64,000 nt of DNA from Ignavibacteria bacterium (GTDB lineage: Bacteria > Bacteroidota > Ignavibacteria > Tepidaquicellales > OLB5): the NCBI GenBank assembly GCA_030835025.1, contig JAUQWS010000023.1, positions 150,458-214,457 of the forward strand, read 5' to 3'. Below the pieces are notes generated by a model that saw only the letters and a list, made by a program, of their open reading frames with translations, had not been told where the DNA came from and made no database searches. This document shows positions 9,881 to 64,000 of the stretch, one piece after another; position 1 is the stretch's first letter; each line of letters opens with the position of its first letter. The position numbers and the translations under genes are program-made.

Positions 9881-10219
9881 ATGAAAAAGGGCACACACCC
9901 GAAATACAGGCCGGTTGTTTTTAAGGATGTTTCATCTGATTTTACTCTTTTGACGAGATCATCGGCTGATTCAAAAGAAACCATAATGCACGAAGGCAAA
10001 GAATACCCGTTAATAAAGATCGATATTTCAAGCGCTTCGCATCCGTTTTTTACCGGTAAGAACATTCTGCTGGATAGCGCCGGACGCGTTGAGAAATTCA
10101 ACAGGAAGTATGCTAAAAGAAAGCCCAAAACAGAAGTTAAAGCAGAGGAAGTTAAGGCTGAAGAAGTAAAAACAGAAGAAGTTAAAACCGAAGAATCCAA
10201 TACCGAAGCTGTTTCATAG
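9881..10219 (+). CDS. rpmE: 50S ribosomal protein L31, type B (no CxxC zinc motif), with a repetitive acidic C-terminal tail
   Basis: The sequence reads MKKGTHPKYRPVVF...SSASHPFFTGK...GRVEKFNRKY. The last ~30 aa are EVKAEEVKAEEVKTEEVKTEE repeats. Confidence 0.9.
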   Translation: MKKGTHPKYRPVVFKDVSSDFTLLTRSSADSKETIMHEGKEYPLIKIDISSASHPFFTGKNILLDSAGRVEKFNRKYAKRKPKTEVKAEEVKAEEVKTEEVKTEESNTEAVS

Positions 10220-10290
10220 GCAATAATCAAAGCTTTCAGGCTTTTGAATAAAATAAAAATTTATCAGATCCTCAAATTACAGTTCCTGAA

Positions 10291-11517
10291 ATGAACATAT
10301 GTATATTTGAGGATTTTTTTATTACCCGCCTAGCCCCTGTTAACCTCTTAAGGCATACATCAAAGATCATTTGCGGTGAATCCACACTTTACGAAAAAAT
10401 AACAGAAAACATACCGGGTAAGCATAAAGTAATGCTTCACTCGCGTAATTACATTGCCGCATATTGCAGGGAAAAATTCCCGGGTACTGCAGTAAACGAG
10501 CTGTATGACGGCGCGTTCATATTCCTTAATGCAAGAGTCGTTTTCAATGACAGGAAACTGAAAGATATTTTCAAACATTTCAGGAAAAAAAATAACGACG
10601 CACTTGTTCAGGATAACACTATTATTGCATTCCACACCACGGAAGATAAAACAAAGCTATATAAAGAAGTAATTAACAATACTGACGGAAATCTTGTTTC
10701 ACTTGCTGATATTGACTGGCTGGGTTTAACAAGAACCGAAACTAGCAGTTATACTGTGATAAACTACCCCTCTGATCTGATACTCCATCATGAAAAAGAA
10801 CTGAAGCATGATCTGGAGCAAATGATGGGTAAGAAGAAGCTGCATGTTTCATCTAAATCCAAAGTGGGTAAGAATGTTGTGTTTGATACGAGCGAAGGAA
10901 GAATTTACGTTGGCAAAAACACGGTAATTGAGCCGTTTACATATATTAAAGGACCTGTTTACGTTGGAGAAAACTGCGCACTCCGCTCCGGTACGCAGTT
11001 GTACGGACCTGTCAGAATAGGCAATAAATGCAAGGTATCGGGTGAAATAACAAGCTCCATACTGCACTGGTACGTAAACAAGCAGCATTACGGATTCCTG
11101 GGGCATTCATATCTGTGTGAATGGGTTAACCTGGGAGCCGGGACGACAACCAGCAACCTGAAAAACAATTATTCCATGATCGAGCTGAATATAGAGGGCG
11201 AGAAAGTAAATACTGATTCGATGTTTCTCGGAAGTATTATTGGTGACCATACTAAGACAGGCATCTGCACTATGCTTAATACGGGTTCGCTTGTTGGAGT
11301 ATCTTCAAATCTGTACGGTTCCGGATATCACAACAAACAAGTCCCTTCATTCAGCTGGGCAGATTCATCAGCCGGCGAGAGCAAGGTGTATGATATCGAA
11401 AAAGCACTGAATACTGCGAAGGTCTCAATGAAAAGAAGAAATGTTGAAATGTCCGAAGCTTATGAAGCAATGTTCAGGGAAGCATTTGAACAGAAAGATG
11501 AATCGCCAAAACTATGA
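10291..11517 (+). CDS. putative sugar nucleotidyltransferase (GlmU-like N-domain plus a left-handed beta-helix of hexapeptide repeats)
   Basis: 408 aa. The N-terminus is MNICIFEDF..L.PVNLLR. The C-terminal half has an imperfect hexapeptide-repeat periodicity (VGKNVVFDTSEGRIYVGKNTVIEPFTYIKGPVYVGENCALRSGTQLYGPVRIGNKCKVSG). Confidence 0.65.
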   Translation: MNICIFEDFFITRLAPVNLLRHTSKIICGESTLYEKITENIPGKHKVMLHSRNYIAAYCREKFPGTAVNELYDGAFIFLNARVVFNDRKLKDIFKHFRKKNNDALVQDNTIIAFHTTEDKTKLYKEVINNTDGNLVSLADIDWLGLTRTETSSYTVINYPSDLILHHEKELKHDLEQMMGKKKLHVSSKSKVGKNVVFDTSEGRIYVGKNTVIEPFTYIKGPVYVGENCALRSGTQLYGPVRIGNKCKVSGEITSSILHWYVNKQHYGFLGHSYLCEWVNLGAGTTTSNLKNNYSMIELNIEGEKVNTDSMFLGSIIGDHTKTGICTMLNTGSLVGVSSNLYGSGYHNKQVPSFSWADSSAGESKVYDIEKALNTAKVSMKRRNVEMSEAYEAMFREAFEQKDESPKL

Positions 11518-15205: not shown

Positions 15206-15384
15206 ATTAGATTATTATTGTAAATATTATAAAAATTGTGGAATGTGTATGGCAAAGATAAACCGTTTTTTCCTTATTTGCAATCAAATATTGCTGTTTA
15301 TTACGTAATTTTAAAGAGAATAATAGTCCCCTAAAAGAAAATTAATCTCAATTATACGCTTTAAATGCAATCAAAAACGGACTA

Positions 15385-22924: not shown

Positions 22925-22977
22925 ATCTATTGCAATAACAATACTGCAATAACATTGAAATTTTTGATGATAAACCA

Positions 22978-22985
22978 TATATTTG
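22978..22985 (+). promoter_or_regulatory. candidate -7 promoter box (TATATTTG)
   Basis: TAnnTTTG match 40 nt upstream of the 23025 start. Confidence 0.4.
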
Positions 22986-28091: not shown

Positions 28092-28099
28092 TAATTTTG
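28092..28099 (+). promoter_or_regulatory. candidate -7 promoter box (TAATTTTG) for the TonB-dependent receptor
   Basis: TAnnTTTG match about 100 nt upstream of 28203. It overlaps the degenerate element copy on the other strand, so the two interpretations compete. Confidence 0.3.
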
Positions 28100-28130
28100 T
28101 GCAAAACCCTCTAAAAAGGAACTATTTGGT
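28093..28130 (-). promoter_or_regulatory. degenerate sixth copy of the conserved upstream element (see the 53958-61944 copies)
   Basis: The reverse strand reads accaaaTAGTTCCTTTTTagagggTTTTGcACAAaatt. It shares the 12-mer TAGTTCCTTTTT and TTTTG-yACAA with copy C but lacks the TG of TGTAGT and the CATCC block. It sits between divergent genes. Confidence 0.3.
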
Positions 28131-47858: not shown

Positions 47859-47926
47859 TTCTATTGTGCTTCTTTCTTTTAATTCTGCTGATTGTATTAA
47901 TAACTATAACACAAATATACTAAAAA

Positions 47927-47945
47927 TAGTTGCTATTAACAACTA
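47927..47945. promoter_or_regulatory. palindromic operator TAGTTG-N7-CAACTA upstream of the OsmC-like gene
   Basis: It lies 69-87 nt upstream of the osmC-like start. The same half-sites and the same 7-nt spacer recur upstream of the MarR gene at 50257-50275. Confidence 0.55.
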
Positions 47946-48205
47946 AAGTCGTTATATTTGCACACGATTAACATGAGGAACTACCATTTTCATTATTGAC
48001 CTTATTCTGGAATAGAGATTCCGGTTTACAGAGTTTTTGGATCAATTTATTAGTTTCAGAGGGGTGCCGGCGTTTTCTTAGAGCCAAATGTCATATAAAA
48101 GTATGACCCGAATCATTTTCTTAGGCTTTTCGGACTGTTAATATTGTGCCGGGATTATTATTGGAGATAAATATCGTTTAAAAACCTAATCTGGAGAAAT
48201 TTATT

Positions 48206-53293: not shown

Positions 53294-53791
53294 TCAGAAC
53301 TTAAAATCTACACCAAGTTCTAAAGTGTTAAAATTGAAATTACCAAGCCCGAACCTGGCAACTCCGGCAACTGCGGGAGAGAAGAAATATCTCATTCCGC
53401 CCTGTCCCCATGCCCACAATCCGCTATTTTTGAGTGAATTGCCGTTTGGCGAGGATGAGAAGAAGCCGAGAACCACACCAAGAAACGGAACAAACTTTCC
53501 GCTTGCAATTTGGTTGAAATTATAATTAGCCTGTCCGCCCAAAAAGATATTTGAGAATCTTTCAAGCCTGTCATCCGGATAGCTTGAATACCTGAGAAGT
53601 GCGCCCAAGCCTATGGACCCGATTCCTGCCTGAGTGACCTGGTTTTCGTAATTGAATCCGAATGTGGGTGTGTTGTTGCGTGCCCAGAATCCGAGTGTAC
53701 CACCCATTAAATTATCACGCTCTTTAAGCTGTGAGAACGATGCTGTTGCAAGCAGCATCAAAAATAGTACTGAGTAAATTGCTGTTTTCAT
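53294..53791 (-). CDS. small outer-membrane beta-barrel protein
   Basis: 165 aa with signal peptide MKTAIYSVLFLMLLATASFSQ. Gly/aromatic beta pattern, ending in ...ELGVDFKF. Confidence 0.65.
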   Translation of the reverse strand: MKTAIYSVLFLMLLATASFSQLKERDNLMGGTLGFWARNNTPTFGFNYENQVTQAGIGSIGLGALLRYSSYPDDRLERFSNIFLGGQANYNFNQIASGKFVPFLGVVLGFFSSSPNGNSLKNSGLWAWGQGGMRYFFSPAVAGVARFGLGNFNFNTLELGVDFKF

Positions 53792-53957
53792 GATTGTTCT
53801 TTCTTTATTTTTTTTGAAAATCGTATCTATAATTAGAAACTTTGATTACACTAAGTTGAAAAAATTCGGTATTTTAGCGATGTATACATTGCATATCGAA
53901 AATCCGAATGAATAGTTAATTATCATGATGTAAGCTACTCAGATATAACAGTTAAGT

Positions 53958-53999
53958 CAATTGAGCAAAGGGATGATAAAAGGACTACACCTCACGGAT
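53958..53999 (-). promoter_or_regulatory. conserved upstream element, copy A
   Basis: The reverse strand reads ATCCgtgaggTGTAGTCCTTTTATCATCCCTTTGCTCAATTG, 167 nt upstream of the 53791 start. Confidence 0.55.
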
Positions 54000-54038
54000 G
54001 ATAGTCAAGAGTTTTCATCCGCAATCAAACAATTACAT

Positions 54039-54063
54039 AAAAAAGGGAGCCTTTGGGGCTCCC
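54039..54063 (-). terminator. rho-independent terminator of the 54093-54875 gene
   Basis: The reverse strand reads GGGAGCC-CCAAA-GGCTCCC followed by TTTTTT. Confidence 0.8.
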
Positions 54064-54092
54064 CGTGATAGTGAACACAATAGGAGAAAATA

Positions 54093-54875
54093 CTATTTTT
54101 TCTTAATTACTCTCTTTGGCTGACCGAAGTAAAAGCTCATGCCTGCGTAGAACTGCAGATAAGCCATTTTCCTCGATTTCTGGGTAGTGGTTTCTTTGTC
54201 ATTTAAACCATAAGTAGTGCTTGTGCTGGTTGTAGAATCCTTGCCAAACAGGTTTGCAAAAGCATACCTTCCGCCGATTACTACGCCGACATTTTTGCTA
54301 AGCTTAACATCTACACCTGCAGCAAAAGTGGCACCAAATCTTATAGCTGATTCCATATTGGCTTCATAGCTAGGTACAGAACCGCCGCTTTGTTCAAATG
54401 TGGTTTTTCCACCGATGATATTGGTTGTAAATTGAACATTCACGAACGGATTTGCGGGTCTCTTCGGTGCAAAATCGTACTCAGCACCAACACCGATAGT
54501 AAACAAGTTCATATCTGTTCTCCATGTGCCAGAACCGATACCAAATATATTGTTTGAATCAAGATTGGAAACGCCGATATCTCCGCTACTAAGCATTGTA
54601 TATGTTAGCGCCAACATGATCCCGAAAGTACTTTTTTTATCAACATAGTATTTCACGTCTGCCCCAAAGTTGAATCCGTTATTTACAAAATACGGCGTGG
54701 GGTTTTTGCCGGATTCCAGATCGGCAGGAAAAGTCCCTTTAAGATCAGGAAGTGTAGTTGTATATCCGCCAATAACGTGAATATTCCATTTTGGTACTGC
54801 GTAAGTCTGTGACTTTATGCTGTTTATAGCAAAAATCAATGCTAAAACAACTAATAATGTATTAAATTTTTTCAA
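54093..54875 (-). CDS. outer-membrane beta-barrel (porin-like) protein
   Basis: 260 aa with signal peptide MKKFNTLLVVLALIFAINSIKSQ (TTG start). Alternating beta strands, with FYAGMSFYF near the C-terminus. Confidence 0.65.
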   Translation of the reverse strand: MKKFNTLLVVLALIFAINSIKSQTYAVPKWNIHVIGGYTTTLPDLKGTFPADLESGKNPTPYFVNNGFNFGADVKYYVDKKSTFGIMLALTYTMLSSGDIGVSNLDSNNIFGIGSGTWRTDMNLFTIGVGAEYDFAPKRPANPFVNVQFTTNIIGGKTTFEQSGGSVPSYEANMESAIRFGATFAAGVDVKLSKNVGVVIGGRYAFANLFGKDSTTSTSTTYGLNDKETTTQKSRKMAYLQFYAGMSFYFGQPKRVIKKK

Positions 54876-54948
54876 GTTTTATATCTCCTTTATTATTTAT
54901 GAATCGTTTTTTTTCTCTAACAAAGCTACATGTTTATTGATGTTATAA

Positions 54949-54989
54949 CAATCAATCATTAGTATGAAATTGGAACTACATCTTTGGAT
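54949..54989 (-). promoter_or_regulatory. conserved upstream element, copy B
   Basis: The reverse strand reads ATCCaaagaTGTAGTTCCAATTTCATACTAATGATTGATTG, 74 nt upstream of the 54875 start. Confidence 0.55.
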
Positions 54990-55067
54990 CTAGATCCTTA
55001 GATTGAGGTGCTGTATAACCGATTTTCGTGACCAACAACCTCAATCCAGGGATTAGATGTAAATTTA

Positions 55068-55736
55068 CTACTCTACCTGCAGGATCTGTTTTCTGAAGTC
55101 ATTTTCCCCATTTGTATTGATCCTGACTCGAAATGACATTCTGAAACCGTATACGTTTAGCGGATCTCTATCTGTTGCTTCTCTGGGCTGAATTATGCCA
55201 TAAACACTGTTCGTAGTTATGCCGGCTTCTCTTTTGCCTTTAAGCCAGAAGCAATAAACCGGATAAGATGCCAGAGGGGAATTGAAGTAACCCCAGCTCT
55301 CAGTTCCGCTTTGAGTAAAGTCATTAGGCGTAAACACGGTATAATTTGGAACCTTTGATAATGTATCAAAAGTATTTACAGACATATCTTCGCTAACCCT
55401 GAAGAATCTTGTCTCATAACCGGGAGGTAATAAGCTGTTAAGCAGCTCACCGTTTTGCAGATAAAAATCAACCCCGCTATTGTTCCTGTCGTTTAAACTG
55501 ACATCACGAAGCCTGGCAGTATCAACAGTGTTCAAACCGTTAAGCAGGTTGATGCCCGTTCGCGAAATAAACGCTGCTGAATCCTCATCAACACCGATGC
55601 TGTCGTAAGATTCCACATTGGGATTATCAATATAAGTAGTTGTCGGTTCTGTTGAGGAATCGTCACATCCGGCAGCCAAAAAGACTAAAGTGATGCTTAC
55701 TGCAAAAAATATTAAAAATTTCGAAATTGATTTCAT
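55068..55736 (-). CDS. hypothetical lipoprotein
   Basis: 222 aa with lipobox FLAAGC. I recognise no family. Confidence 0.6.
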   Translation of the reverse strand: MKSISKFLIFFAVSITLVFLAAGCDDSSTEPTTTYIDNPNVESYDSIGVDEDSAAFISRTGINLLNGLNTVDTARLRDVSLNDRNNSGVDFYLQNGELLNSLLPPGYETRFFRVSEDMSVNTFDTLSKVPNYTVFTPNDFTQSGTESWGYFNSPLASYPVYCFWLKGKREAGITTNSVYGIIQPREATDRDPLNVYGFRMSFRVRINTNGENDFRKQILQVE

Positions 55737-55780
55737 TTTGTTTGTTTGATTATGAATTAGTTTATGGATCTTGTTAAAAA

Positions 55781-56179
55781 TTACTTACCGGGAATTGGCA
55801 GCTCCGCTATATTCTCCTCTTTAAATGGAAATGCACTACTTTTAATGGCATCGGCCTTCATTTCCAATGGAAACGGGCTTAAAACTTTCGGATCTTCAGA
55901 GGGCAATAATTCATCTGAAAGAGATGTTAATTCGGAAAATTGCAGATTATCTGTATACTCAAAGTTGAGCTCAGATCCAGCCCGGATCAATTCTATGCTC
56001 TGATCACCATTAACATCAGTATACATCTGAAACCGGCCACTTTCGGCGGAACGACCGTTTTCACCTGTACTTTCTTCTTCATTCTCATTTGTTTCGTCCA
56101 TTTCTCTGTAGAATACAACCATAGTAATAAGAACAAGTACTACCAAAAAGAAGGAAAAATATTCTACTATTAAGGCCAT
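55781..56179 (-). CDS. hypothetical N-terminally anchored, acidic protein
   Basis: 132 aa with an N-terminal TM (FSFFLVVLVLITMVVF) followed by an acidic region. Confidence 0.45.
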   Translation of the reverse strand: MALIVEYFSFFLVVLVLITMVVFYREMDETNENEEESTGENGRSAESGRFQMYTDVNGDQSIELIRAGSELNFEYTDNLQFSELTSLSDELLPSEDPKVLSPFPLEMKADAIKSSAFPFKEENIAELPIPGK

Positions 56180-56412
56180 CTGGTTTGCCCGGGCAACTTA
56201 AAATTTTTTTCTGATTCTATCTTGCGCAAACTGTTATACTCCTTAGATTTTTCAAATTCTCTTTCAATATCTGGGTATGTCCTGAACTGTGCACCCTGAT
56301 TGACAGCAATTCTTTCCTGAATTAATCCTGAGTTATTTTTGACTAAGATTAAGATCATTAAAAAAAGAATTTTAAGTAGAAGTTCATCATATTGTTTTTC
56401 GTCCTGTAACAA
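56170..56412 (-). CDS. hypothetical small membrane protein (weak call)
   Basis: 80-aa ORF with a TTG start and one TM (LLLKILFLMILILV). It overlaps the 3' end of the lmo0937-family gene by 26 nt, so the true start is uncertain. Confidence 0.3.
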   Translation of the reverse strand: MLQDEKQYDELLLKILFLMILILVKNNSGLIQERIAVNQGAQFRTYPDIEREFEKSKEYNSLRKIESEKNFKLPGQTRWP

Positions 56413-56536
56413 GATTATATATGAGTATTATCACTGCAACAACTAATAGTATATGAATGAAACCACCTAAAGAATAAGAACTTACAAGTCCCACCAGCCA
56501 AAGTACTAAAAGTATTACAAATATTGTCCACAGCAT
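56387..56536 (-). CDS. lmo0937-family small membrane protein (49 aa)
   Basis: My translation reads MLWTIFVILLVLWLVGLVSSYSLGGFIHILLVVAVIILIYNLVTGRKTI. The ATG is preceded by AAGGAGA. It is absent from the ORF track. Confidence 0.75.
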   Translation of the reverse strand: MLWTIFVILLVLWLVGLVSSYSLGGFIHILLVVAVIILIYNLVTGRKTI

Positions 56537-56576
56537 GATTTATCTCCTTATTGGATTAAATTATTGAAAAAACTCT

Positions 56577-56726
56577 TTAAACGGTTCTTTTACCGGGTAA
56601 GAACCTGAAAATAAGTACTACTACTGCAAAGATCAGCAAAAGATGGACCAACCCGCCCATTGTGTATGAAGTAAATACTCCGAGCAACCAAAGAGCAATA
56701 AGGATCACAAAAATTGTCGCAAGCAT
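56577..56726 (-). CDS. lmo0937-family small membrane protein (49 aa)
   Basis: My translation reads MLATIFVILIALWLLGVFTSYTMGGLVHLLLIFAVVVLIFRFLPGKRTV. It is in tandem with 56387-56536 and absent from the ORF track. Confidence 0.7.
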   Translation of the reverse strand: MLATIFVILIALWLLGVFTSYTMGGLVHLLLIFAVVVLIFRFLPGKRTV

Positions 56727-56985
56727 GATTTGTTCTTTCTAAAATATTAAGTTAAAACATTTGCAGTTAAATTAGAATTGCAGAGATAAATTTGTATGTA
56801 TCTGGGCATCTTCATATGTGAAACAAAATCTTACCTCTGCAATTACTAATGTGACGTCTAATGCTGACGTTGAAGCAGCATTATGGAGGAGAAAAACCAA
56901 AACTTTTGCTCTATAAATCTCGATTATTCATACGATAACACTTTTTAGATCTTAGTTTGAAGTGCCCATTCCTTTATTGCCGGGT

Positions 56986-57522
56986 CTAATTAATCCCGTA
57001 ATTCATTTGCTTTCCTTCTGCATATTCTGAAATCAGATTTTTCAGAGTTCGACGTGCCCTGAATAGTCTGCTTTTGACAGTACCAACCGGGCAGTTCAGG
57101 AACTTGGAAATATCTTCAATACTGTAATCTTCAAGATGGAAAAGTATGATCACCATCCGGTATTCATCTTTGATAGAGTTTATAGCCACTAAGAATTCAT
57201 CGCTCATAAGAGTATCCTTATCTGAAGAAGTGAACCAGGATAGTGTATCCGGCTTTTCGTAATTTGAAAGCAGCTGCGGCGCTTTTTGTTTCTTTGCCGC
57301 ATAATTTATAAAAAGGTTCTTCAGTATCCGGTACATCCAGGCTTTGGGGTTTGTATTTTTTTCATACGTATGGTAGAATCGGTACGCCCTGATGTACGCT
57401 TCCTGCACCAAATCTTTTGCATCATCTTCATCCCTGGTAAGATTAGCTGCAACTTTCACGAAGTATTTATAATGCGGGATCATTTCTCTTTCAAAATCCC
57501 CTGTGCGGTTATAATCTTCCAT
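56986..57522 (-). CDS. ECF-type RNA polymerase sigma factor, copy B (paralog of 43303-43794)
   Basis: 178 aa. Region 2 is DAKDLVQEAYIRAYRF...KAWMYRILKNLFINY. Region 4 is IEDISKFLNCPVGTVKSRLFRARRTL. Confidence 0.85.
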   Translation of the reverse strand: MEDYNRTGDFEREMIPHYKYFVKVAANLTRDEDDAKDLVQEAYIRAYRFYHTYEKNTNPKAWMYRILKNLFINYAAKKQKAPQLLSNYEKPDTLSWFTSSDKDTLMSDEFLVAINSIKDEYRMVIILFHLEDYSIEDISKFLNCPVGTVKSRLFRARRTLKNLISEYAEGKQMNYGIN

Positions 57523-57565
57523 ATTTCAGTTCAGTATTTTTAGTAATTTTTTGTTTCTGTTCATT

Positions 57566-57949
57566 TTAAGTGATCTTGTTTTGAACATTCTCCGTATTTT
57601 CTGACTCCGGACTTCTTTTGTCCAAGTCTGATCTTCTTTCGCTGTATGCCCTGAAACCGGATTTAAGAGCGGCTTTTACATTATCTGCTTTGCGGGTTAT
57701 CTTATCCATACCCGTATTCAAAAATTCATTGGCGCTATCCAGAGTACTTTCAGCAGCATCTTTAGCTCCATTCCATGATTCAGAAGTCAGTTTCTTACCT
57801 TCTTCGATCAGTTCACCTGTTTTCCTTCCAATATCTTTTCTGAGATTCTTTCCTGCCTTAGGTGCATATAATAAGGCCAATGCACCTCCAATAACTCCGC
57901 CGAGCAGAAAACTTAAGAATATTCCTTTTTTACTTTTCTCGCGTATCAT
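57566..57949 (-). CDS. YtxH-domain protein, copy B
   Basis: 127 aa. It has KGIFLSFLLGGVIGGALALLYAPKAGKNLRKDI. Confidence 0.8.
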   Translation of the reverse strand: MIREKSKKGIFLSFLLGGVIGGALALLYAPKAGKNLRKDIGRKTGELIEEGKKLTSESWNGAKDAAESTLDSANEFLNTGMDKITRKADNVKAALKSGFRAYSERRSDLDKRSPESENTENVQNKIT

Positions 57950-58004
57950 ATCATTATTATCCTTAATATTTTGATGTTAATAAAAATTGTTAATTTCCTG
58001 CTTC

Positions 58005-59723
58005 TTATTTAACCAGAATCATCTTCTTGTTAGAAACAAATGATCCGGATTCCATTCTATAAAAATATGCGCCGCTTGGATATGCCTCTGCATTCCAGGT
58101 TACTTCATAATTTCCTGCACTCTGGTACTGGTTAATCAAAACACTTACATTCTGTCCAAGTGCGTCATATATGCCAATCTTTACATTACCTGCAGAAGGA
58201 AGCTGGTAATTAATTACAGTTACTGGGTTAAACGGATTAGGATAGTTCTGGGAAAGTGTGAATTCAAATGGACTATTAGTTCCGTTACTGCCGATTGCTA
58301 TTACGCCAGTTGTATTGAACCCTACCTCGTAAATATCAAAATTATTACCGCTGCGATAATCCTGCCATACAACTATCGCTCCTAGATTACCGTTACTGAC
58401 GATTGATGGCCTAATCTGGTCATTGGCAACGGAACATATAACGTAACCCGTAGCCGCCCAGTTTATTGCCGCATTTGATGCGATTCTCTGCGCATAAACA
58501 TCAGAATTCCCTGAATTACGATGGTCCTCCCATGTAATATATGCTCCGCTGTTTCCATCACTGACAAGCTGGGAACTTATCTGGTCACCTGAAGCTGTGC
58601 AAATGATAACACCAGTTGCTGTCCACTGAACTGCTCCCGTTGAGTTTACACGCTGTGCATATATATCGGCAGTTGTGCCTGTTCTATAATCTGTCCATGA
58701 AAGGATTGCTCCGCCCATTCCATCACTAACTATCTTTGGATCTGTTTGTGCATATGCAACATTATTATTCATCACAACTCCATCAACAGCCCAAACTATT
58801 GCGCCGCTGGGACCCTGTCTTTGGGCATAAATGTTAAAATCTGTTGAGCTTCTATAATCACTCCACGCAATGATCACTCCGCCTGCTCCGTCACTTGAGA
58901 TATCAGGTTTTAGCTGGTCTGTTCCCATGGTACAAGTTGCTACTCCGTTTGTTGTCCATTGTACGGCTCCTGCTCCACCTACTCTTTGAGTGTAAATATC
59001 ATAGCTGCCTGAGCGGTTATCGTACCAGGTTATAAATGCTCCTCCGCTGCCATCGCTTACAAGTCTGGGGCCTCTTTGTGATGCAGCCTGGTTGCATATA
59101 TTTACCCCGTTTGCGGTCCACAACATTGCTCCTGAAGGATTTATACGCTGTGCGTAAATATCCGGTAACCCGCTGTTGCTGCGGTAATCCTGCCACGTAA
59201 GAATTGCACCGCCAAGCCCGTCACTGATCATAGTTATTGTGTCCTGTTCAAAGACAACAACACATACTGGAACGCCATTCAGTGTCCACTGCACATTGCC
59301 GCTTGAATTAACCCGCTGGGCAAAGATATCTGCCGTAGCGCTTCCTCGGTATGACTGCCATGAGATTATTGCACCACCACTGCCATCACTGACAATCATG
59401 GGAGTGTAATTGCTATCCTGTGTGCAGATGGGTATTCCATCTGTACTCCATACAGCGTTTCCGTCTGAGTTCATTCTTTGTGCATATATCTCGAATTTAC
59501 CGCTTCGCTTATCCTGCCATGAAATAATTACACCGCCGCTGCCGTCTGTAGCAGCCACAGAATTAATCTGGTTATTAACTGCAGTACTGACAGGATTTCC
59601 TGTCGACTGTGAATTAGTTGCAACCGGCATTATTAAGACAAATGCAAATACCAATGCAAATGAACGAAACAGGCGCCATAATAAAGCTGCTGGGTCTGTA
59701 AAAATTGATTTCATAATTCTCAC
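58005..59723 (-). CDS. T9SS-sorted secreted protein built from eight ~53-aa tandem repeats (probable beta-propeller)
   Basis: 572 aa with a signal peptide. It has 8 units of SDGSGGAIISWQDYRSG..DIYAQRVNSSGAVQWT.NGV.IC. The C-terminal domain reads NYPNPFNPVTVINYQL...GAYFYRM...KKMILVK. Confidence 0.75.
   Translation of the reverse strand: MRIMKSIFTDPAALLWRLFRSFALVFAFVLIMPVATNSQSTGNPVSTAVNNQINSVAATDGSGGVIISWQDKRSGKFEIYAQRMNSDGNAVWSTDGIPICTQDSNYTPMIVSDGSGGAIISWQSYRGSATADIFAQRVNSSGNVQWTLNGVPVCVVVFEQDTITMISDGLGGAILTWQDYRSNSGLPDIYAQRINPSGAMLWTANGVNICNQAASQRGPRLVSDGSGGAFITWYDNRSGSYDIYTQRVGGAGAVQWTTNGVATCTMGTDQLKPDISSDGAGGVIIAWSDYRSSTDFNIYAQRQGPSGAIVWAVDGVVMNNNVAYAQTDPKIVSDGMGGAILSWTDYRTGTTADIYAQRVNSTGAVQWTATGVIICTASGDQISSQLVSDGNSGAYITWEDHRNSGNSDVYAQRIASNAAINWAATGYVICSVANDQIRPSIVSNGNLGAIVVWQDYRSGNNFDIYEVGFNTTGVIAIGSNGTNSPFEFTLSQNYPNPFNPVTVINYQLPSAGNVKIGIYDALGQNVSVLINQYQSAGNYEVTWNAEAYPSGAYFYRMESGSFVSNKKMILVK
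58314..59555 (-). repeat. eight in-frame ~159-nt coding repeats
   Basis: The repeat boundaries are read from the protein. Each unit starts with S(D/N)G.(G/S)GA and contains W.D.R and (I/V)Y(A/T)QR. Confidence 0.75.
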
Positions 59724-59782
59724 CTTTTAGTATAAATTTTTTGTTTTTATTAACTCAAACTACGTATTGATCCGTTATTTTT

Positions 59783-59824
59783 CAATTGTACAAAAGGATG
59801 AAAAAGGAACTACATCTTTTGGAT
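59783..59824 (-). promoter_or_regulatory. conserved upstream element, copy C (heads the unit that contains ECF sigma B)
   Basis: The reverse strand reads ATCCaaaagaTGTAGTTCCTTTTTCATCCTTTTGTACAATTG, 60 nt upstream of the 59723 start. Confidence 0.55.
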
Positions 59825-59857
59825 TAGTGAAAAATTGTATTTTATCATACAGCTATT

Positions 59858-59888
59858 TAAAGAGTTATCCCGTTTTTGGCGGGATAAC
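59858..59888 (-). terminator. hairpin terminator of the 59925-60734 gene
   Basis: The reverse strand reads GTTATCCCG-CCAAAAA-CGGGATAAC followed by TCTTTAAA (weak T-run). Confidence 0.5.
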
Positions 59889-59924
59889 ACGAATTGAGTA
59901 CAGAAACTCTTGATTCTACTATCT

Positions 59925-60734
59925 TTAATCTACATTAATTACAACATTGGTTGAAGGCTGGCCAAAGAACGTACCATCTTTAACTAACTGGCACTGCAGG
60001 TTATATACACCTGACTTTTTCGGTGCGGTAACCTTAAAGCTGAAATTGACTTCAGAACCTGAGTAAACATCATCCGATAATTCAACATTAGCTACTTCCC
60101 ATGCATTATATGTATTATCAGCACCTTTTGTTGATACTTTGAGTTTATATTCTCCCGGCTTCCATGTTGTAGATCCGGTGTTTCTCATTGTGACATTGAC
60201 ATCATAAGTTAAGCCGGTCTCCATTTCAGAGGTTACTTTTTGCGTTACGAAAAACGCATTGTTTTCAATAAAATTCGGGACTTCTATAACAGGCTCCGTT
60301 CCTGAGACTCTGACCGGTACATTCATTGTAGGTTCACCAAAGAAAGCATTGCCGCTTGCCATCTGCCACTGTATGTTGTAGCTTCCGTCAACCGGTGCTA
60401 CGATCGTAAAGTTAAATACAACTTCGCTGCCAGGACTAACAGTTGAGTTCACATCTACACTGCCGATTGACCATGTTTTGTAAACTAATTCCGATGGATT
60501 TATCAGCTTGAGGCTGTAGGTACCCTGTTTCCAAACACTGCGTCCCGTATTCTTCATTGTAACCGATACTCCGTAACTTTGCCCGGGGAGCATGAATCCG
60601 GGTGTTGATTGTGATAAGTATGCTGCATTATCATAGTAGTCAGTTATCCCGACACCTTTTGATTGTGCGGTAAGACTGCCTACTATCAAAACACTTAATG
60701 TAAGTGCGATTGCTATCGACTTAATTTTTTTCAT
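59925..60734 (-). CDS. secreted protein with two NBR1-type Ig-like (FW) domains
   Basis: 269 aa with a signal peptide. Two units have the pattern V(T/N)M(K/R)NTG...W(K).G.Y.LK........W....V.....V.(P/S)GSEV.F.F...AP...G.YN.Q.Q......FG.P. Confidence 0.5.
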   Translation of the reverse strand: MKKIKSIAIALTLSVLIVGSLTAQSKGVGITDYYDNAAYLSQSTPGFMLPGQSYGVSVTMKNTGRSVWKQGTYSLKLINPSELVYKTWSIGSVDVNSTVSPGSEVVFNFTIVAPVDGSYNIQWQMASGNAFFGEPTMNVPVRVSGTEPVIEVPNFIENNAFFVTQKVTSEMETGLTYDVNVTMRNTGSTTWKPGEYKLKVSTKGADNTYNAWEVANVELSDDVYSGSEVNFSFKVTAPKKSGVYNLQCQLVKDGTFFGQPSTNVVINVD

Positions 60735-60793
60735 TTTAAACTTTCTTTAAATTATTGTTAACAGACTAAACTACACAGAGATTGTGTACCATG

Positions 60794-60835
60794 CAATCGC
60801 ACTACAGGATGAAATAAGAACTACACCCAACGGCT
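60794..60835 (-). promoter_or_regulatory. conserved upstream element, copy D
   Basis: The reverse strand reads AGCCGttgggTGTAGTTCTTATTTCATCCTGTAGTGCGATTG, 60 nt upstream of the 60734 start. Extra TGTAGT-like words flank it. Confidence 0.55.
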
Positions 60836-60851
60836 ACAATGCAGAGTTAAT

Positions 60852-60926
60852 TCAAGAGCCTGCGATCAGAATGAGCGCGGCAAAAATGTAAATAATGGTC
60901 AGACCAAATACTATAAAGTTCTTCAT
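60852..60926 (-). CDS. possible 24-aa hydrophobic micro-peptide
   Basis: My translation reads MKNFIVFGLTIIYIFAALILIAGS. There is no convincing RBS, so this is very tentative. Confidence 0.2.
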   Translation of the reverse strand: MKNFIVFGLTIIYIFAALILIAGS

Positions 60927-61030
60927 AACAACTTCTATATATAATTCGTTTACTTAACAGCCTTATATCTACAGCAATTACTTACTGTTTATTCATTGAG
61001 CTGATTTTAAATTCTATGACGGAAAATAGT

Positions 61031-61213
61031 TCAAACCATCATGTTTGACATGTAAGTCCACAACCCAAATATCTTGAACAGCCAGACCAGAACAAAAATG
61101 ACGACAATTGCGTTCACAATTTTCTTGATCGTGGGCTGCATAGGGATGTAATTGATCAGCCATAAAACAAAACCAACAACTACTAAGGTGATTACTATTG
61201 TTAATACAGACAC
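61031..61213 (-). CDS. small two-TM membrane protein (Thivi_2564-like)
   Basis: 60 aa: (M)SVLTIVITLVVVGFVLWLINYIPMQPTIKKIVNAIVVIFVLVWLFKIFGLW. GTG start preceded by GGAG. The family name is from memory. Confidence 0.5.
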   Translation of the reverse strand: MSVLTIVITLVVVGFVLWLINYIPMQPTIKKIVNAIVVIFVLVWLFKIFGLWTYMSNMMV

Positions 61214-61304
61214 GTTGACTCCTGTTTTCTATTATAATACTTCAAATCATTTATACACTATTAAAGCTCAGGTGATTCTTTCCCGCCTGCGTTCTTCAAT
61301 CCTG

Positions 61305-61850
61305 TTATAAGATCGCCAGAACCAGTACTATTATGAGAAGTACAAGAACTATTGTAATAAGTACACCCGTATCAAGCCCGAGTACATTTTCAGCGTACAG
61401 CACATTATATTCATTCTTCTGCTGCTTCGTGTCAAATAATTTGTCATTAATTACAAACATATCCGGAGAGCTGTCGCCGTTCTTATCGGCAAAGAAAACA
61501 GGATAAGGCAGAGCTATTTCGATAAGTGATGTGGAATTGTACTTGTCGTATTTCATATTCTCGGCAGTAAAATATGGCTTTTCAAGTGTACCTGTATTTT
61601 TGTAATATTCTACATTACCATTATTGAATATCAGGATATCAAAATCGCCGTCTTTATCAACATCAACAATAGCCGGATTTTTAAGCCCGAGATTGTTTTC
61701 AACATAGGCGTCTGCAAGCTTTTTGATTTCTTCATTCGTAAAAACTTTATGTGATGTTACGGGATCCTCGTTGGATAACAATCTGTAACCCGGTGCCAGC
61801 AAAAACAAAAACATAGTGAAAATGAATATTGAAGTTTTCATGTTTTTCAT
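61305..61850 (-). CDS. FG-GAP/VCBS-repeat protein with a signal peptide and a C-terminal TM anchor
   Basis: 181 aa. It has VDVDKDGDFDILIFNNGNVEYYKNTG and FFADKNGDSSPDMFVIN Ca-binding-type FG-GAP motifs. The C-terminus is GVLITIVLVLLIIVLVLAIL. Confidence 0.6.
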   Translation of the reverse strand: MKNMKTSIFIFTMFLFLLAPGYRLLSNEDPVTSHKVFTNEEIKKLADAYVENNLGLKNPAIVDVDKDGDFDILIFNNGNVEYYKNTGTLEKPYFTAENMKYDKYNSTSLIEIALPYPVFFADKNGDSSPDMFVINDKLFDTKQQKNEYNVLYAENVLGLDTGVLITIVLVLLIIVLVLAIL

Positions 61851-61900
61851 TATTTGATTAAGAATTAATGAACAAAGTTACGTCTGATGCTGCAACATTA

Positions 61901-61944
61901 CAATTAAACAAAGGATTGAAAAAGGGACTAATTCTCTTTTCAAT
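61901..61944 (-). promoter_or_regulatory. conserved upstream element, copy E (variant ATTAGT, CAATCC)
   Basis: The reverse strand reads ATTGaaaagagaATTAGTCCCTTTTTCAATCCTTTGTTTAATTG, 51 nt upstream of the 61850 start. It lies between divergent genes. Confidence 0.5.
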
Positions 61945-61991
61945 CCAACGGACTATACTGTTTTAATCAATACTTCCCGAATTTTGTACAT

Positions 61992-62588
61992 ATGAAAAAA
62001 CCAAATCAAATGAAAAAGAAAATATATGTACCGGCATTTCTTGCAGTATTATTTGCTGCAATGGTTTTTACGGGAAGTATCGGGTTCACTGAAAAACCTG
62101 AGAGTCCCTATTTTAAATATGTAGGAATAAAAAGCTGCGCTGCAACATGTCATAAAGGTGATACAAAGGGAAACCAGCTTGAAATATGGCAGGACTCCAA
62201 ACACTCAAAGGCATTTATAACCTTGCAGACACCGGAAGCTGACAAAATTGCCAAAGATAAAGGGTTTGATACTCCGGCATCAGAGACACCACTGTGCATA
62301 AAATGCCACGTTTTGGGCAAGGATATCGATCCTGAAGAGCTTGAAGATACGTTCGATAAGACACAGGGAGTGCAGTGCGAAACTTGTCACGGCCCCGGCT
62401 CGGAATATAAAAGGATCACTATTATGAAAGATAAACAGCAGGCAATTGCAAACGGTTTGATTGTTCATGAAGATGGTGCCGTTTTCTGCAAGACCTGTCA
62501 TAACTCTGATAGCCCAACATTTAAAAGCTTTGATTATGACGAGTACTGGGCAAAGATAAAACATTCAGATCCAAGTGTTTCAAAATAG
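61992..62588 (+). CDS. tetraheme c-type cytochrome (cytochrome c554-like multiheme family)
   Basis: 198 aa with an N-terminal signal/anchor. It has four CxxCH motifs: CAATCH, CIKCH, CETCHGPGSEY and CKTCH. Confidence 0.8.
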   Translation: MKKPNQMKKKIYVPAFLAVLFAAMVFTGSIGFTEKPESPYFKYVGIKSCAATCHKGDTKGNQLEIWQDSKHSKAFITLQTPEADKIAKDKGFDTPASETPLCIKCHVLGKDIDPEELEDTFDKTQGVQCETCHGPGSEYKRITIMKDKQQAIANGLIVHEDGAVFCKTCHNSDSPTFKSFDYDEYWAKIKHSDPSVSK

Positions 62589-62635
62589 AAATAAACAAAA
62601 ATTAATAACTAAGTTTTTAAGTAAGGAATAATATC

Positions 62636-63541
62636 ATGACTGAAGAATCCGGAAGCAAACAAGAAATTCTGAATAGCAATTCCACAGAGGATCGGCAAGG
62701 CAGAAAATCAAATAAGAATAGTTTAATTGCCGTAGTAGGAGTATTTCTGCTGCTGATCACTCTAACAGTTATAGTAATAGGGTATTTGTATTTGGGAAAA
62801 TCGGATTACGAAAAAGGAACTGCTTTCTATAAAGATAAGAAGTTCACAGAAGCACTATTTCAATTTCAGAAAGTAGGACCGGATGATGTAAATTTCAGTA
62901 ATGCCCAATCCCGGATTAATTACATAAACGGGCTTAATTCCTTTAATGACGGCAAAAAGCCAGAAGCAATTGTTTATCTTTCAAAGGTCACAAAAGACGA
63001 TGAATATTACAGTGATGCTCAGCTTATGCTGGGGAAGCTGAGTGAAGCCAGCATAGGAAATGACCTGCAATCACAAATAGACGCTTTAAGAGAGAGCAAA
63101 GATACAGTTATAATAAAAAAAGAATTCACCGGGACTCCCGTTAAGATTGTAGAGCCGGCAGATCCGACAAAACAGGCCGATATTGAATTGGGAAGAAAAT
63201 TTATTTCGGAAGCAGAAAATTCTATTTCGAGATTTGAAAGCATGTACCAAACGGCAAGAACAGCTCCTTTGAGCACAAAAGGTGATTATGGAAAGGGACT
63301 TGAGTCTGTTCATAAAGAATTCAACAGCCTGAAATATTCTGCACAGAACAAGGATGCGGGTGTTGTTGAATTAAAAAGACTGGTTTCTGACTGGATGAGT
63401 AAACGAAATTCGTTTATCAGACAACTGATCTCAGAAAAATCTGTAAGCGAAACAAGCTCATCAATTGCCTTGAAGGAAGAAGGAGACAGACTCTACTCTC
63501 AGGTAATAAGCCAGTTGAAAAAAGTCAAGAAAAGCCTGTAA
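62636..63541 (+). CDS. hypothetical single-pass membrane protein with a TPR-like helical ectodomain
   Basis: 301 aa with a TM (LIAVVGVFLLLITLTVIVIGYLYL) and helical repeats (YEKGTAFYKDKKFTEALFQFQKV). Confidence 0.5.
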   Translation: MTEESGSKQEILNSNSTEDRQGRKSNKNSLIAVVGVFLLLITLTVIVIGYLYLGKSDYEKGTAFYKDKKFTEALFQFQKVGPDDVNFSNAQSRINYINGLNSFNDGKKPEAIVYLSKVTKDDEYYSDAQLMLGKLSEASIGNDLQSQIDALRESKDTVIIKKEFTGTPVKIVEPADPTKQADIELGRKFISEAENSISRFESMYQTARTAPLSTKGDYGKGLESVHKEFNSLKYSAQNKDAGVVELKRLVSDWMSKRNSFIRQLISEKSVSETSSSIALKEEGDRLYSQVISQLKKVKKSL

Positions 63542-63547
63542 GAATAG

Positions 63548-64000
63548 TTATTTAATTATGCGGCTGTTCGTTTGTAAAACTGTCCTGTAATGGTGCCCGT
63601 AAATTGATTGAGTAATAGCTTCGGAAATCAATTTTGGCTTATGAAGCATAGTCCAGAATATCATTTTCCAGAAGTAGAAATTACCGCTGTCAATCACACC
63701 CATTTGCCAGAACGATCTTGTAATTGCCAATATCATGAGTTTCACAGAGAACTTTGAGCCTTTGGCAAGTCCCTCATATTCCCCAAGGTAAGTTATAATC
63801 CTTTTATAATAGAATTTTGGATGATAAATTGTATCAAGTATCTTCCTGTAACCCTCCAGCAGGATATCTTTGTTAATTACAGGAATAAAATTGAGTGTGG
63901 AATCAGTATTGTTTCCGGTAGCGGCGCTCAAAATCCTTCCGTCTTTCTTAAGTTTCTTGTATAGTTTTGTCTTTGGCAGGGCATGAAGCAGGCCAACCAT
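63548..64000 (-). CDS. C-terminal (DUF4070) part of a B12-binding radical SAM protein. The 5' part lies beyond the right edge of the window.
   Basis: GLLHALPKTKLYKKLKKDGRIL....GNNTDSTLNFIP....ILLEGYRKILDTIYHPKFYYKRI matches the DUF4070 tail. The apparent ATG at 64000 is an artefact of the window edge. Confidence 0.65.
   Translation of the reverse strand: MVGLLHALPKTKLYKKLKKDGRILSAATGNNTDSTLNFIPVINKDILLEGYRKILDTIYHPKFYYKRIITYLGEYEGLAKGSKFSVKLMILAITRSFWQMGVIDSGNFYFWKMIFWTMLHKPKLISEAITQSIYGHHYRTVLQTNSRIIK

Follow-up and report, generated by a model that had tools for sequence, protein, structure and literature searches.

We analyzed a 64,000-nt stretch of an Ignavibacteria bacterium genome (assembly GCA_030835025.1, contig JAUQWS010000023.1), and refer to this whole stretch as the window. 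Five of its intergenic regions carry minus-strand copies of a conserved ~45-bp DNA element, henceforth the box. The box is conserved across the class Ignavibacteria, stands at a fixed distance from sequences that fit a housekeeping-type core promoter, and is linked in both directions to genes for two paralogous NarL/FixJ-type response regulators, RRa and RRb. These associations suggest, with a probability that we put at about 65%, that the box is the activator site of a two-component regulon and is bound by this Ignavibacteria-specific pair of regulators.

Sediments, groundwater and wastewater reactors are rich in Ignavibacteria, but to our knowledge essentially nothing is known about transcriptional regulation in this class. 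The element appears to be undescribed: our literature searches revealed no paper with the box sequence, none on promoter motifs of the Ignavibacteria and none in which KaiC and Ignavibacteria are mentioned together. As a transcription-factor site that has a regulon, the element is of a known type, but its length is unusual, and so is the fact that it hardly varies within an entire class. The box provides a sequence-searchable handle on what is apparently the main envelope and general-stress regulon of the Ignavibacteria, and it points to a PAS kinase and to two NarL-type response regulators, paralogues of each other, as the likely regulators.

Five copies of the box in the window

Box positions are numbered from the first T of TGTAGT (position 1). 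An earlier sequence-only reading of the window had described five minus-strand blocks with a constant gap of exactly 21 nt from TGTAGT to rATTG. The five blocks (copies A to E, Table 1) are confirmed with this gap in 5/5 copies, copy E having ATTAGT in place of TGTAGT, and both a pattern and a profile search recover them. The distances reported from the copies to the start codons (~167, 74, 60, 60 and 51 nt) are likewise correct. The pattern TGTAGTYCNNNTNTCANNCNNNNGNNNRATTG, with ≤3 mismatches allowed, has five matches in the 64 kb, which are the five copies, whereas 0.05 matches are expected from shuffled sequences; this test is partly circular because the pattern was derived from the copies themselves. 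The profile used to score the window was built with nhmmer from copies in other genomes only. It took the place of an early position weight matrix, made from pattern-constrained copies, that over-penalized variants. After the five copies, the best profile match in the window reaches 4.3 bits. A degenerate sixth copy had been proposed at 28093-28130, and this is at the noise level: it shares only the 12 bases TAGTTCCTTTTT with the box and scores 0.7 bits (E = 19).

Copy C is the closest of the five to the class-wide consensus. Copy A (54002-53958) has an upstream TCATCC and then reads TGTAGTCC..TCATCC..G..AATTG. Copy E has a distinct “type II” flavor, GGATTG..ATTAGTCCC..CAATCC..AATTG.

Conservation of the box across the Ignavibacteria

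We scanned one genome per species with a pattern that covers positions 1-32 only, so that the region 53-58 is excluded from it. The scan yielded at least 120 loci. All counts given below over 149 or 151 copies, 117 downstream genes or 120 loci are among the matches listed. Nearly all of the listed loci are labeled Ignavibacteria, Ignavibacteriales, Ignavibacteriaceae or Melioribacteraceae, and a few bear the loosely applied names “Bacteroidetes” or “Chlorobiaceae”.

The consensus of 149 copies is CTCAcCCAAAAGA followed from position 1 by TGTAGTTCCTTTTTCATCCyTTTGnnCGATTGAa, which for the box divides into the segments CTCAcCCAAAAGA-TGTAGTTCC-TTTTTCATCC-yTTTG-nn-CGATTG. The core TTTTCATCC..G..ATT is invariant. 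Positions that the pattern left free are nearly invariant as well (G-1 in 146, T17 in 147, C18 in 138 and A-4 in 133 of the 149 copies), and the nearly invariant G/C positions are G-1, C8, C15, C18, C19 and G24. The nhmmer profile detects at least 275 copies in the listed loci and the window, and the clustering of copies is therefore general. Over the 200 loci that were fetched, the totals are at least 149 strict copies and ~350 profile copies.

Two box flavors recur across the loci: type I has TGTAGTYCC, and type II has ATTA(A/G)nnCC. Type II comprises copy E of the window, boxes F and G on contig L121 (see below) and boxes in loci L202, L203, L205 and L207.

The copies show a clear bias in position and orientation relative to genes. 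All but one of 151 copies are intergenic, the next long open reading frame is on the same strand in 131/151, and the start codon lies a median of 64 nt from the predicted transcription start (position 65). The sequence-only reading had considered that the block could turn out to be the end of a dispersed repeat, similar to a miniature inverted-repeat transposable element, found mostly away from gene starts. Many clustered copies per genome would be in keeping with such a repeat, but orientation and distance to gene starts are fixed, copies are kept at orthologous genes across genomes, terminal inverted repeats are absent and the flanks are not conserved. We give the mobile-repeat explanation practically no weight.

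The box contains an imperfect DNA dyad, CAAAAGATG-N12-CATCCyTTTG, with 78.7% complementarity compared with 28-48% in slid controls. Direct TCAYCC / TAGTYCC / TCATCC repeats are also present, and the dyad and the repeats are both candidates for the half-sites of a NarL/FixJ-type regulator.

The core promoter behind the box

Exactly 20 nt lie between rATTG and GTAnnTT in 5/5 window copies. In sigma-70 terms, this corresponds to TTG(Axx) at positions 30-35 and TAnnnT at positions 53-58 with a 17-nt spacer, and the equivalent Bacteroidota-style reading is TTG-N20-TAnnTT(TG). Both a -35 TTG and a -10 TAnnnT (or -7 TAnnTTTG) are thus present at canonical spacing, from which a transcription start can be predicted. 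The conserved ~45-bp box spans positions of about -12 to 32, or approximately -76 to -32 from this predicted start. The phase between box and core is fixed not only in the window: across the 149 copies the -10 region, which lies outside the search pattern, is sharp (T53 in 109, A54 in 125 and T58 in 146). The sequence-only reading had stated that the TAnnTTTG box that precedes housekeeping genes is missing upstream of the five genes, which is not the case, as copies B (TAGCTTTG) and E (TAACTTTG) match it exactly. Judged by its motifs and spacing, the core behind the box fits a housekeeping-type promoter. The trailing TG of TAnnTTTG is not conserved across the 149 copies, which makes the core sub-optimal, a property to be expected where a promoter depends on an activator.

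The RRa genes provide a second line of support. Their N-terminus is well aligned (MKKIRLLLIEDN), and in nine RRa genes from different genomes (the subgroup-2 loci L023, L005, L041, L073, L095, L111, L157, L158 and L164) the ATG is at positions 64-66, 5-7 nt past the TAnnTT box. We therefore predict leaderless mRNAs for these regulators, with a start at about position 64-65. The ATG placement supports the assignment of the core promoter without recourse to consensus matching. In the promoters of RRa subgroup 1 (L045, L086, L140, L107, L126 and others), the spacer between -35 and -10 is 1 nt longer and holds a second (T)ACATCC (GATTGATTTTACATCCnnAATTAGTTGCATCTT), which may be an extra regulator site for autorepression.

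The window contains nine full TTG-N19-21-TAnnTTTG sites (4.5 expected). Each of them is in an intergenic region, several at 23-54 nt from the following start codon, and this is probably the form of the housekeeping promoter in this organism. Intergenic full Bacteroidota-type promoters are found at 22955-22985(+), 15253-15283(-), 47912-47942(-) and 47930-47960(+); the distance to the start codon is 39-54 nt for three of these four and 245 nt for the fourth. A scan of the window with the simple sigma-70 consensus was uninformative (30 sites, 27.9 expected).

The position of the box also bears on a cis-acting RNA, which the sequence-only reading had offered as an alternative; it would be a GAUG/CAUC hairpin in the 5′ leader. 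A weak hairpin can be drawn, and copy E folds at -11.5 kcal/mol (z = -3.2), but the other four window copies fold at z of 0 to -1.5, each differently. Shuffles give a mean covariation score of 0.121, the observed score is 0.126, and 86 of 500 shuffles attain it. None of the four GAUG/CAUC pairs has a double change, with 7-26 broken cells each, and changes in the left arm are never compensated in the right arm. We obtained no relevant Rfam match in a gathering-threshold scan of the whole window or in a permissive scan of 53.8-62.1 kb. Furthermore, the box lies upstream of the predicted start, and the RRa mRNAs are predicted to be leaderless. The complementarity within the box is real as a DNA dyad only, and an RNA element is extremely improbable.

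Two paralogous response regulators are linked to the box

A response regulator is the product most often encoded directly behind the box. Among 117 first downstream genes, 20 encode NarL/FixJ-type response regulators, and these 20 form a single orthologous cluster (RRa, 62-100% identity) with the box directly upstream of the gene. By tblastn, the response-regulator family occurs in 41/120 of the 8-kb loci anchored on the element. Its second member, RRb, is a paralogue of RRa with a reciprocal arrangement: no RRb gene in the element-anchored loci has an upstream box, and a box starts just past the RRb stop codon. As the next gene behind this post-RRb box, which it would drive, we find RRa in 16/61 cases; in 7 the gene codes for a B12 radical-SAM protein, and in 4 it is kaiC. 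Upstream of RRb, a ~428-aa PAS-HisKA-HATPase kinase is encoded in 10-12 of 60 loci.

We also assessed the linkage in the reverse direction, in an independent sample of 80 metagenome contig loci anchored on the proteins. A box is found ≤400 nt upstream of RRa in 25/41 loci. For RRb, a box follows the stop codon at a distance of 17-215 nt in 29/36 loci. Each reverse arrangement occurs in about one locus.

The closest solved structures to the regulator proteins are VraR and NarL, and the proteins consist of a receiver and a GerE helix-turn-helix domain. Since they reach no NCBIfam equivalog cut-off, RRa and RRb have no orthologue among the named regulators. Across RRa, RRb and the members linked to kaiBC, the recognition helix TVKSH(I/V)HN..EK does not vary, in parallel with the invariant box core. 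No other DNA-binding family is enriched beside the box in the Pfam tallies.

The source genome shows the same association beyond the window. The sequence continues on L121, a contig of 9 kb that includes the right end of the window; subtracting 61610 from a window coordinate gives the position on L121. Along it we find a radical-SAM/DUF4070 gene preceded by box F, with the regulator gene RR1 before it, then kaiC-kaiB, and then the regulator gene RR2; the seventh box, G, lies past RR2 on the other strand. RR1 and RR2 are NarL-type and 74% identical to each other, and the segment in which they flank kaiC-kaiB covers L121 3668-7512, equivalent to window positions 65278-69122. The five window copies therefore belong to an island of at least seven boxes beside two regulators of the family.

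The preferred reading of these data, in which RRa and RRb activate from the box, can be outlined as follows. A PAS histidine kinase, often encoded before RRb, would be part of the two-component system, and the box after RRb would drive the next gene. The phosphorylated regulator would sit on one face of the DNA at a series of CAYCC-type sites that extend as far as the -35 element and into it, and would recruit or activate RNA polymerase at an otherwise weak core promoter. This would be class I/II-type activation, comparable to that at BvgA, DosR and LiaR/VraR promoters. The data show the anatomy and spacing of the box, its conservation across the class, its bias in position and orientation and its linkage in both directions to the regulator genes; the start site, the protein that binds and its action as an activator, not a repressor, are inferred. 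As the box lies upstream of the RRa gene itself, positive autoregulation of RRa is implied. The regulon would comprise outer-membrane protein (OMP) barrels, OmpA-TSP3, cargo of the type IX secretion system (T9SS), MlaE, an M48 protease, an AI-2E transporter and YtxH, and further CsbD, Dps, B12 radical-SAM enzymes and kaiBC, with genes for extracytoplasmic function (ECF) sigma factors in some lineages.

Several observations weigh against the RRa/RRb assignment. The regulator was assigned by genomic association alone. RR1 and RR2 of the source genome have no recognizable upstream box on L121, and we saw no RRa orthologue in 73 kb of this genome. A box within 400 nt upstream is found at only 25 of the 41 metagenome RRa loci, with several others 500-650 nt off behind a small gene. 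The site, at 45 bp, near invariant and largely asymmetric, exceeds the typical dimer operator of the NarL family, and the box may also hold contacts for the alpha subunit of RNA polymerase or a second factor. Finally, the simple sigma-70 scan makes no call on the core promoters linked to the box because their -10 hexamers match at T1, A2 and T6 only.

The length and asymmetry of the box for a GerE-type dimer, together with the associative nature of the evidence, could also mean that a different transcription factor, or a second one, binds it and that the NarL-type genes are merely prominent targets or neighbors. We consider this unlikely, as no other DNA-binding family stands out in the tallies, both paralogues are in a strict position-specific relation to the box, and the recognition helix is invariant family-wide. 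A factor-independent module is less probable still. In that explanation, the box would make a strong promoter by itself: an intrinsically curved, UP-element-like sequence with phased A/T tracts, contacted by the alpha C-terminal domains of the polymerase, would keep the expression of abundant envelope proteins constitutively high. The box does occupy -40 to -60, it contains AAAA, TTTTT and TTT tracts ~10-15 bp apart, and its targets include abundant outer-membrane proteins. However, the near-invariant G/C positions do not fit, the element is missing from housekeeping genes over the remaining 54 kb of the window, and the box is tightly linked to regulator genes.

Gene content of the proposed regulon

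The first downstream genes (n = 117) were tallied by Pfam. After the 20 with Response_reg + GerE, the families are AI-2E transporter (10), Por_Secre_tail and OMP_b-brl (9 each), Ferritin/Dps, OmpA(-TSP3) and B12 radical SAM (4 each), and MlaE, M48 peptidase, YtxH and NBR1-Ig (3 each). CsbD, ice-binding-like T9SS cargo and kaiC are found behind the box in other loci. Going by these annotations, the gene content looks like an envelope-remodeling and general-stress regulon.

For the genes behind the five window copies, Pfam agrees with the sequence-only reading on OMP beta-barrel, Por_Secre_tail, YtxH, ECF sigma, NBR1-Ig and FG-GAP; a Pfam search with the 165-aa target of copy A gave no match. 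Copy A heads its own transcription unit because a terminator-like hairpin separates the gene for the 260-aa OMP from it (Table 1). The copy E variant, including the GGATTG...CAATCC inverted pair, also precedes the orthologous FG-GAP gene in L204 and L206.

Table 1. Boxes, core promoter elements and associated genes. Coordinates refer to the window unless L121 is indicated.
Feature	Coordinates (strand)	Box	First T of TGTAGT	Profile score (bits)	Core elements and predicted start	Remarks
Copy A	53932..54002 (-)	54002-53958	53989	41	-35-like TTGACT 53960-53955; -10-like TAGCTT 53937-53932; start ~53926	
Copy B	54923..54993 (-)	54993-54949	54980	33	-10/-7 box TAGCTTTG from 54928; start ~54917	
Copy C	59757..59827 (-)	59827-59783	59814	51	-35-like TTGAAA; -10-like TAGTTT 59762-59757; start ~59751	
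Copy D	60768..60838 (-)	60838-60794	60825	32	-10-like TAGTTT 60773-60768; start ~60762	
Copy E	61875..61946 (-)		61932 (ATTAGT instead of TGTAGT)	18	-7 box TAACTTTG from 61880; start ~61869	
Box F	L121 3583-3614 (-)					Before radical-SAM gene
Box G	L121 7772-7803 (+)					Past RR2, other strand
Copy A target	53294..53791 (-)					165-aa secreted or outer-membrane protein; box-preceded orthologues in L115, L022
Terminator-like GC hairpin + T-run	54044..54064 (-)					Between stop codon of 260-aa OMP gene and copy A
Copy B target	54093..54875 (-)					260-aa OMP beta-barrel (Pfam)
Copy C operon	56986..59723 (-)					T9SS 8-repeat protein 58005-59723; YtxH 57566-57949; ECF sigma 56986-57522
Copy D target	59925..60734 (-)					NBR1-Ig-like protein (Pfam)
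Copy E target	61305..61850 (-)					FG-GAP repeat protein (Pfam)
B12-binding radical-SAM/DUF4070 gene, 3′ part	63548..64000 (-)					Own box (copy F) beyond right end of window

ECF sigma genes behind the box

The simplest hypothesis of the sequence-only reading was an autoregulated ECF sigma regulon, with the box as the -35/-10 promoter of an alternative sigma factor that possibly controls its own gene in the copy C operon. An ECF sigma gene is indeed inside this operon, and an unrelated one is directly behind a box in L207. The sigma factor of the window, however, occurs in only 2/120 element-bearing loci, both of them syntenic close relatives, and Sigma70_r2 is absent from the 25 most frequent families listed for the 117 first downstream genes. 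The sense strand lacks GGAAC-N16-CGTC, and the 149-copy consensus has no such pair at 16-17 nt. GGAAC is present on the opposite strand only, as had been noted, and in the consensus it is followed there at N10-11 by GGAT. The conserved TTG-N17-TAnnnT at a fixed distance and the leaderless placement of the ATG fit a housekeeping-type core instead. What stands of the hypothesis is promoter-associated, activator-type DNA upstream of transcription units; the ECF-sigma promoter was rejected, as architecture and co-occurrence are both contrary to it, and we consider it very unlikely.

The sigma genes look like recurrent targets of the system rather than readers of the box, and the sigma gene of the copy C operon looks like a downstream operon member. 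With ECF sigma genes behind the box both in the copy C operon and, directly, in L207, a cascade from the regulator to sigma factors is plausible. The boxes in L207 are at 10113 and 10900 (+), upstream of the ECF sigma gene (10282-10839) and of a protein with sigma region 4 only (11036-11470), respectively. A motif beside a sigma gene can thus be misread as the promoter of that sigma factor.

The link to kaiBC

KaiC clears the NCBIfam KaiC cut-off (730 vs 408 bits). Among the element-anchored loci, kaiC is present in 8/120. In loci anchored on KaiC (n = 7), a regulator of the family is encoded within ~2 kb of kaiBC in 5/7, and a box-like sequence in sense orientation is found upstream of kaiC in 5/7, with an open reading frame of 44-61 aa between them in three. 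The kaiC gene of the source genome has no upstream box and a plain TTGACA-type promoter.

We regard the Kai link, seen as gene proximity, as a lead and not as a conclusion. It is doubtful, though conceivable, that a KaiBC-coupled cascade (PAS kinase to RRb to RRa) has the box as its output operator and would time or gate a general-stress and envelope-remodeling regulon in the non-phototrophic Ignavibacteria as a whole, with kaiBC under feedback through the box. If true, this would be the first output regulon of Kai proteins outside the cyanobacteria with a defined cis-element. The physical link between the regulon and kaiBC makes Kai function in a non-phototroph directly testable.

KaiA3 is a NarL-type receiver domain protein that is syntenic with kaiB3C3 (PMC11372060). 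The Ignavibacteria resemble this arrangement in that a NarL-type receiver protein is encoded beside kaiBC in 5/7 KaiC-anchored loci, but their neighbor has a genuine GerE DNA-binding domain and not a KaiA-like C-terminus. A further difference from Kai output systems, both the cyanobacterial SasA-RpaA and KaiA3, is that kaiBC itself is preceded by the box in 5/7 loci; the functional link is putative.

Comparison with known systems

NarL/FixJ-family activators with several sites down to the -35 element and with autoregulation include BvgA at fha and bvg, DosR/DevR at its boxes, and LiaR/VraR in envelope-stress regulons. The Ignavibacteria system shares with them a regulator made of a receiver and a GerE domain, a site that abuts or overlaps the -35 element, a regulator gene behind its own site, and envelope or stress targets. 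It differs in a box of ~45 bp that is near invariant class-wide and mostly forms no simple 7-2-7 or 20-bp palindrome, and in having two paralogous regulators in reciprocal positions to the box.

Autoregulated ECF promoters (GGAAC-N16/17-CGTC) are similar in that the motif is dispersed before envelope genes with a sigma gene among them, but their architecture is unmatched here, the sigma gene accompanies the motif in only 2/120 loci, and the core is of the housekeeping type. The housekeeping promoter of the Bacteroidota has -33 TTTG and -7 TAnnTTTG. The core behind the box, (A)TTG-N20-TAnnTT(TG), is similar, although across genomes only TAnn(t)T is kept and the trailing TG is not. The UP element of rRNA promoters, a site for the alpha C-terminal domain at -40 to -60, has the same position and A/T tracts, whereas the box differs in its invariant G/C positions, in its restriction to a regulon and in its extent, to -76.

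The general stress regulon of Bacillus sigma-B includes CsbD, YtxH and Dps. YtxH, CsbD and Dps/ferritin are also among the genes linked to the box, but control here is apparently exerted by a two-component regulator at a housekeeping-type promoter and not by an alternative sigma factor.

Neighboring genes in the window

At window positions 61992-63541 (+) are the genes for a cytochrome c554-like multihaem protein and a 301-aa protein to which no family was assigned. The pair is syntenic in L003, L204 and L206, is on the opposite strand and without a box, and always has the box cluster on one side and kaiC or the radical-SAM gene on the other.

Two tandem genes at 56430-56730 (-) encode small membrane proteins of ~50 aa (MLATIFVILIALWLLGV... 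and MLWTIFVILLVLWLVGL...), and a box was not detected upstream of this pair. A small gene that resembles them (DUF5670 by Pfam in L205) adjoins regulon genes in L202 and L205.

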